IMG/VR virus record: IMGVR_UViG_2563366768_000033
Strand: one strand, 5' to 3'
From: a virus
Lineage: Duplodnaviria; Heunggongvirae; Uroviricota; Caudoviricetes
DNA: 25,942 nucleotides
Part shown: positions 18,811 through 19,023 of the stretch, one piece after another
Position numbering within the stretch: the stretch's first letter is position 1
How the letters are laid out: every line of letters begins with the position of its first letter
Made by a program: the position numbers and the translations under genes
Notes under the pieces: model-generated
What the model saw: only the letters and a program-made list of their open reading frames with translations
Told to the model about the DNA's origin: nothing
Database searches by the model: none

Positions 18811-19023
18811 TATTCACTACTATTCACTTAGGTAAAAAAAATAGGTAATACAGAAGGTTATAAGGTGAAGGGTTGGCATGGCAGTATTCATCGACTGTTC
18901 ATAACTGTTCACATGGGAATAAAATTATTTATGGTATTTTTTCATAATGGGTGGTTTTTTTATTCCTCGTAGCTATTTGTTTTTTGCTCCTCACCACTAT
19001 TCACCCTTATTCAGGAGTATTCA
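18811..19023. repeat. cluster of T(A/G)TTCA(C) heptamer/octamer repeats; candidate alpha-binding replication iterons (ori/crr-like)
   Basis: TATTCAC at 18811 and 18821 (10-bp phasing), TATTCA 18885, TGTTCA 18897, TGTTCAC 18906, TATTCAC 18998, TATTCA 19008 and 19017, in an ORF-free AT-rich region between the sid-like and vis-like genes. Confidence 0.45.

Follow-up and report, generated by a model that had tools for sequence, protein, structure and literature searches.

The window, by which we mean the whole 25,942-nucleotide stretch analyzed here, contains a 933-bp gap (18643-19575) in which RefSeq annotates no gene, in agreement with a sequence-only reading that had described the interval between the late operon and a vis-like gene as free of open reading frames. 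A sid-like gene and an alpA/vis gene flank the gap, and the genes for an alpha primase-helicase and a Cnr-like protein lie farther to the right:

17890-18642, minus strand: sid-like gene with a Psu-fold match, left flank of the gap
19576-19836, plus strand: vis gene, AlpA/Vis family, right flank of the gap
20608-20931, plus strand: cnr-like gene, DUF5375 (Pfam E = 1.7e-49), 71% identical to its P4 counterpart
20945-23278, plus strand: gene for the alpha primase-helicase (777 aa; 73% identity with P4 alpha across 771 aa)

Chromosomes of E. coli O157:H7 match the gap at 100% identity, and the segment that encloses it (window 12014-24900) carries the annotation "prophage Sp2, P4-like phage" in strain Sakai. 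Sp2 is the second prophage of a tandem array at tRNA-Thr (thrW, 1369-1444). The 46-bp 3' end of this tRNA gene is repeated exactly at 11985-12030, the Sp1/Sp2 junction, and attR, at the right end of Sp2, is a degenerate copy with deletions (~24898-24917, ggttcctattatcgcacca). Between its ends Sp2 carries, in order, the integrase, defense cargo, ogr/delta, psu, the sid-like gene, the gap, vis, an Icd-like gene with C4 and isrK RNAs inside it, a 73-aa gene, the DUF5375 (cnr-like) gene, alpha, and a 318-aa AT-rich ORF.

The cargo between the integrase and psu (13378-16654) is a Lamassu defense system that is apparently broken: two ORFs (13378-13794 and 13767-14384) share the LmuA sequence, LmuB is divided among three (14808-15467, 15498-16088, and 16088-16654), LmuC is intact (14369-14842), and the Lamassu ATPase is a pseudogene in the Sakai annotation. 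On the 3' side of vis, a C4 antisense RNA (20054-20141, 84 bits) and isrK/a1b1 target elements (19895-19985), all inside the Icd-like ORF, make up a P1/P7-type c4-icd immunity module. With Rfam at both thresholds no RNA family was found in the gap itself, the C4 and isrK matches falling downstream of vis.

On its plus strand the gap holds eight copies of the hexamer TRTTCA, which start at 18811, 18821, 18885, 18896, 18906, 18998, 19008, and 19018 and are thus 10, 64, 11, 10, 92, 10, and 10 bp apart from start to start. Against 20,000 first-order Markov shuffles of the 933-bp region, in which the mean number of copies was 0.80 and the maximum 6, none reached the observed 8, a frequency far beyond chance. 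Elsewhere in the window no 220-bp stretch carries more than three copies on one strand, and over the window as a whole the hexamer shows no enrichment (11 copies vs 6.9 expected); the signal therefore lies in the clustering and phasing of the copies. The sequence-only reading had counted at least eight TATTCAC/TGTTCAC-like heptamers. Eight copies do stand at the level of the hexamer, but the full TRTTCAC is present in just four of them (18811, 18821, 18906, and 18998), the next base in the remaining four being T, T, G, and A. The 10-bp phasing that had been pointed out for the pair at 18811 and 18821 proves to be more extensive than was stated, as all eight copies, on one strand throughout, fall into three phased groups, A with two, B with three, and C with three. 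The groups and the sequences between them are as follows, with site scores here and below taken from a family weight matrix introduced further on:

18810-18828, plus strand: iteron pair A, consisting of A1 (CTATTCACT, 18810-18818) and A2 (CTATTCACT, 18820-18828), 10 bp apart
18829-18863, no strand: AT-rich spacer of 35 bp, 77% A+T, TTAGGTAAAAAAAATAGGTAATACAGAAGGTTATA (P4 counterpart TTAATAAAAAAGATAAGTAATACAGTAAGTTAAAG)
18864-18872, minus strand: inverted iteron remnant, GGTGAAGGG on the plus strand vs GGTGAACAG in the family, 4.8 bits
18884-18913, plus strand: iteron triplet B, consisting of B1 (GTATTCATC, 18884), B2 (CTGTTCATA, 18895), and B3 (CTGTTCACA, 18905)
18914-18986, no strand: T-rich spacer between triplets B and C, 74% A+T
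18987-19025, plus strand: iteron-like array C, with CTCCTCACC at 18987, CTATTCACC at 18997, TTATTCAGG at 19007, and GTATTCAAC at 19017, in 10-bp steps

Groups A and B are homologous to the ori1 site of satellite phage P4 in position, orientation, spacing, and sequence. The P4 record (NC_001609) places its rep_origin at 9086-9809, between ORF88 (vis) and sid, and annotates six 8-bp "ori type 1 repeats" (TGTTCACC) at 9310-9413, with ten more in the cis replication region, crr, downstream of alpha. As in the window, the P4 repeats lie in the gap between sid and vis, in the same orientation relative to those genes, and run from two iterons through an AT-rich spacer of 35 bp to one inverted and then three further iterons, with spacings of 10, 64-65, 11, and 10. 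Read in the matching orientation, P4 ori1 runs ACTGTTCACC TCTGTTCACC, 35 bp of AT-rich sequence, the inverted GGTGAACA, and ACTGTTCACCG TCTGTTCACC ACTGTTCACC. An alignment of window 18805-18915 with this site (MAFFT) is collinear, with every iteron position in register and no rearrangement. In it A1 and A2, the homologues of the first two P4 repeats, align with ACTGTTCACCTCTGTTCACC, the inverted position shows GGTGAAGG, triplet B, with its spacings of 11 and 10 bp, matches the three clustered type 1 repeats, and the spacer at 18914-18986 aligns loosely with a T-rich stretch that follows the P4 iterons. A blastn search (in "distant" mode) of 18600-19600 against 50,697 phage records, P4 included, returned no match, probably because the stretch of similarity is short and AT-rich; the homology is shown by the direct alignment.

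There are also departures from P4. The window has no exact copy of TGTTCACC; its inverted, B1, and B2 positions are degenerate; it carries an extra phased array, C; and 691 bp separate triplet B from vis, as opposed to 308 bp in P4, the clade to which the window belongs being ~380 bp longer here. The three tandem copies of the P4 "type 2" repeats are likewise not recognizable. On the other hand, the A-for-G iteron variant is not foreign to P4, since the annotation of P4 crr lists TATTCACC among the type 1 repeats.

A survey of the wider family, in which the alpha protein was compared with one genome per species, gave 80 loci with alpha proteins 56-94% identical to that of the window. In about 40 of these a chain of TRTTCA copies with spacings of 10/64-65/11/10 lies 1.7-2.7 kb upstream of alpha. 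The ~40 elements that have this 125-bp module (alpha 57-94% identical) come from Enterobacter, Klebsiella, Citrobacter, Erwinia, Yersinia, and others, and in a 44-row alignment of the cores most iteron columns are 90-100% identical. TATTCAC is the most frequent form at the A1 position in the family, and the spacer core, AAAAA..TAATACAG, is at least 90% conserved over the same 44 rows; the spacer at 18829-18863 is presumed to be the unwinding region of ori1. The P4-like loci (L003-L082), whose modules are themselves unannotated, share the 125-bp core with the window at high identity, and in most of them crr follows directly after alpha. A scan of viral contigs for TATTCA-N4-TATTCA-N4-TATTCA was uninformative, giving 120 unrelated matches, mostly in giant viruses and AT-rich repeats.

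From 233 iterons of these relatives, with the window, L040, L203, and L204 left out, we built a weight matrix whose consensus is CTGTTCACC, with C at position 8 in 230 of the 233. The family iterons themselves score a median of 15.7 bits, with a 5th percentile of 11.6 and a minimum of 5.5. Over both strands of the 25.9-kb window, the six best sites are 24667 (minus strand, 17.2 bits), 18997 (14.3), 18810 and 18820 (A1 and A2, 12.8 each), 24680 (12.7), and 18905 (B3, 11.3). Six sites of at least 11 bits compare with 1.8 expected in the whole window, and all six are confined to the repeat cluster and a short segment at 24664-24785. Four of the eight TRTTCA copies therefore score like family iterons, but of the six canonical ori1 positions A1, A2, and B3 alone do so. 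Below the family minimum of 5.5 bits fall B1 (3.6) and B2 (3.7), neither of which has C at matrix position 8, the inverted position, and C2 and C3. The window has three ori core sites of at least 10 bits, compared with a mean of 5.8 in 37 relatives, and two strong sites downstream of alpha, compared with a mean of 5.5.

The segment at 24664-24785 resembles a second P4 element, crr, and aligns with both of its 120-bp repeats:

24664-24785, no strand: single crr-like unit
24667-24675, minus strand: iteron CTGTTCACC, 17.2 bits
24680-24688, plus strand: iteron GTGTTCACT, 12.7 bits
24750-24758, minus strand: iteron CTGTTCATA, 3.7 bits

Here, too, likeness to P4 is combined with reduction. As in P4, the unit lies downstream of alpha near the att end, and it retains the first inverted iteron pair and the terminal A/T tract (A7/T6 in the window). 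P4 crr, however, is built of two 120-bp repeats, each of which has five type 1 repeats, as opposed to one unit with two good iterons, rather than ten, in the window. The unit also begins 1392 bp past the alpha stop codon, behind the inserted 318-aa ORF, where most relatives have it at ~54 bp; a comparable displacement is seen in L004, L025, L031, L037, and L040. The inserted ORF (23411-24367, minus strand) is 69% A+T, lies past the alpha terminator and before the crr unit, and has no match in Pfam, NCBIfam, or PADLOC. Several relatives have crr 0.7-1.8 kb from alpha or have cargo between two crr units, this downstream-of-alpha pattern being found in L004, L025, L031, L037, L040, L005, L013, and L057, which suggests a second cargo hotspot beside crr.

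The cognate proteins are encoded nearby. P4 ORF106, annotated as DUF5375, is the homologue of the DUF5375 gene of the window, and we take ORF106 to be cnr. The alpha gene is full length, with Pfam matches to Zn-ribbon primase, Toprim, D5_N, and Pox_D5, and its C-terminus (encoded at ~22955-23254) matches all 100 residues of the P4 origin-binding domain (PDB 1ka8) with E = 7.1e-48. This layout, a primase and an SF3 helicase followed at the C-terminus by a winged helix that binds the origin, is that described previously (PMC2777425), as is the position of cnr just upstream of alpha (PMC8628076). Comparisons of alpha within the clade give dN/dS values of 0.05-0.13 for the gene and 0.02-0.06 for the origin-binding domain, with saturated synonymous sites (dS ~2.2).

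The clade in question consists of the window and loci L040 (from Scandinavium, alpha 94% identical), L203 (83%), L204, and L205 (both 82%), and array C is confined to it, being absent from P4, where the alignment has a 43-bp gap, and from ~37 other relatives. These five elements have two to three strong core iterons plus array C, as opposed to five to six strong core iterons in the relatives. The degenerate iteron positions of the window are common to the same clade: the inverted position has the same degenerate form in L040 and L203, and L204 is degenerate there in another way. Array C, made up of three to four 10-bp units, lies 92 bp after B3 (start to start). Its units score 6.4 bits at 18987, 14.3 at 18997 (C1), below 3.5 at 19007 (C2), and 4.4 at 19017 (C3). 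In the window the array reads CTCCTCACC ACTATTCACC CTTATTCAGG AGTATTCAAC, the units of L204 are cleaner (TATTCACCA), and that of L205 is short by exactly one 10-bp unit. When the gap is compared with L204, overall identity is 55%; groups A, B, and C stand at 0.80-0.83 (array C 0.80-0.83, triplet B 0.83 and among the best-conserved islands) on this 0.55 background, and other stretches, such as 19160-19340, fall to 0.23-0.47.

Several smaller features share the right-hand part of the gap. Some 65 bp downstream of array C, amid diverged non-coding DNA, lies a block at 19085-19114 (GTGTTGCATTTCATACTGATTTTTATAAAA, containing TTGCAT) with identities of 0.70 to L204 and 0.93 to L203; it could be a promoter facing vis, although it failed a consensus scan. 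A scan for promoters and terminators gave counts not above those of shuffles. A lone inverted iteron-like site (19353-19361, minus strand, CCATTCACC, 5.8 bits) lies ~330 bp to the right of array C and is recognizable in L040 and L203, with one to two substitutions each, and deleted in L204 and L205. In other P4-like elements, the interval between ori1 and vis holds three to five 10-bp repeats in tandem where P4 has its "type 2" repeats (P4 9176-9205), as in L007 (~4440-4490), L013 (~1600-1660), L015, L006, L068, L061, and L082. These repeats are lineage-specific (TTTGCCA, GGCCAA, ATGTGCGAGG, TGGCAC, ATTGCC, and AGGCAAA), and Vis is too conserved to explain their variation.

Taken as a whole, the cluster is very probably ori1 in the bipartite, P4-type replication origin of prophage Sp2 of E. 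coli O157:H7, an assignment made from sequence comparison to which we would give a probability of nearly nine in ten. The sequence-only reading had put the cluster forward as a candidate origin of the satellite, and synteny, alignment, family conservation, the matrix, and the presence of a cognate alpha largely bear this out. With the ori1-like cluster, alpha, the cnr homologue, and the crr-like unit, the window has a counterpart of each of the four parts of the P4 oriI replicon, a reduced one in the case of crr. P4 alpha binds the iterons of both ori1 and crr; the wider picture of P4 replication is said to come from the work of Ziegelin and Lanka, Flensburg and Calendar, and Tocchetti and Deho. 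By analogy with P4, the C-terminal winged-helix domain of alpha would bind iterons in both ori1 and crr, opening would occur in the AT-rich spacer that separates groups A and B, the SF3 helicase would load at the opened spacer, and the N-terminal primase would start bidirectional theta replication independently of DnaA or DnaG, with Cnr acting on alpha to limit copy number. Iteron origins of plasmids and phages, of the P1 oriR, pSC101, and R6K type, likewise combine phased direct repeats beside an AT-rich region with a winged-helix initiator encoded by the element. Unlike these, the P4-type initiator forms one protein with a primase and an SF3 helicase (PMC2777425), and the P4-type origin is bipartite, with crr as a distant partner in cis.

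Could the repeats belong instead to other P4 functions? It is very improbable that they are Ogr/Delta late-promoter boxes (TGT-N12-ACA) or integrase arm sites, even though TGTTCATAACTGTTCACA at 18896-18913 does fit the box pattern. This fit over B2-B3 hangs on the single base that follows B3 and does not extend to L040, L203, or P4, the window shows no enrichment of the pattern (6 vs 6.4 expected), and the sid-like gene has a better-placed box at 18713-18730, so that we reject the B2-B3 fit as a functional box and regard it as coincidental. That other box (minus strand), which precedes the start codon of the sid-like gene by ~70-90 bp and is kept in L203, is presumably an Ogr/Delta-responsive late promoter and belongs to the context of the origin rather than to the origin itself; no such box was found upstream of vis by pattern match. 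As for integrase, the arm repeats of P4 attP (GTGGGGGCACAA / AAGGGGGCATAT) are unrelated to the iteron, and the cluster lies 6-7 kb from each prophage end. A more serious alternative, if a doubtful one, is that the cluster descends from a P4-type ori1 but is no longer an origin here, a dead relic left by the decay of a domesticated satellite. Three of the six canonical iterons score under the family minimum, and the loss of a single iteron reportedly inactivated P4 oriI in experiments by Tocchetti et al. in 1999; strong sites are depleted in the core and downstream of alpha, as given above, attR is degenerate, and the Lamassu cargo is fragmented. In Sakai, moreover, Sp2 showed no circularization, replication, or packaging, with or without mitomycin C, and Sp13, the only P2-like prophage resident in that strain, is defective (Asadulghani et al., PMC2669165, Table 2 for Sp2). 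The same study nonetheless predicts that the replication function of Sp2 is conserved, and its assay, which needs prior excision and a helper phage, is no direct test of the Sp2 origin; the degenerate tRNA copy at the right end may explain why no excised Sp2 circle was detected in Sakai. Against decay, alpha is full length, with the low dN/dS given above in a clade whose synonymous sites are saturated; "degenerate" forms such as B2 CTGTTCAT are common to members 82-100% identical in alpha; and conservation picks out groups A, B, and C as islands in non-coding DNA that is randomized elsewhere. Together, the alpha dN/dS values, the islands, and the shared forms point to selection on the arrangement of the clade, with which a recent inactivation in O157 would still be compatible.

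Array C calls for a separate judgment. It most likely represents extra alpha sites, a view that we hold with little more than even confidence and that draws on a core, strand, and 10-bp phasing identical to those of the type 1 iterons. Its C1 unit (CTATTCACC) is the second-best iteron in the whole window, and the units of L204 (TATTCACCA) correspond to a P4 crr variant. It is rather unlikely that the array, and perhaps the TCAT/TCAA variants with it, are instead operator sites for another protein, either Vis/AlpA or a different regulator. Such sites would fit the fact that array C holds a single family-grade iteron, that four of the five clade members keep GTATTCAA rather than TCAC in its last unit (GTATTCGA in L040), that B1 and C3 have the 8-mer AGTATTCA in common, and that 92 bp from B3 is no whole number of helical turns; the conserved TTGCAT-containing block downstream of the array and the lineage-specific 10-bp tandem repeats upstream of vis in other P4-like lineages point the same way. 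Yet no clade-specific DNA-binding gene was found; relatives without array C also have vis, the icd-like gene, the 73-aa gene, and cnr. Nor does array C correspond in position to the P4 "type 2" repeats, an assignment we considered and rejected, since a better candidate for their remnant, GGTTTAATCG GGCTTTAAAT, is located at ~19424-19456, close to the promoter region of vis and at a P4-like distance from vis, as judged by reading the sequences by eye rather than by statistics. A change specific to the clade in the alpha origin-binding domain, sought as an explanation of the TCAT variants, was not found, the one clade-fixed difference in the last 125 residues of alpha (~667) lying just upstream of that domain. 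If array C does consist of alpha sites, the origin of the clade (Sp2, a Scandinavium element, and several E. coli elements) may have been remodeled and not simply eroded, with triplet B, the inverted iteron, and crr losing consensus iterons and array C, whose copy number changes in exact 10-bp steps, arising beside ori1 under purifying selection to replace crr or triplet B as the landing site for alpha. This is a tentative proposal, and as a whole an unlikely one; if true, the remodeled origin would be a natural case of iteron turnover in a bipartite origin.

The element described here is an unannotated, partly eroded, and slightly remodeled copy of a known P4 origin type, and these results leave the known working of P4-type origins unchanged. 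A 933-bp unannotated gap in the genome of a much-studied pathogen gains a specific, testable function, and a simple iteron matrix recognizes the ori1 and crr modules of P4 across P4-like satellites, which can be put to use in annotating the replicons of these very common elements, of which over 1000 have been reported (PMC8628076), and in flagging the cargo hotspot beside crr. Array C, together with the eroded canonical iterons, amounts to a small natural experiment on the number and placement of the iterons that alpha needs.
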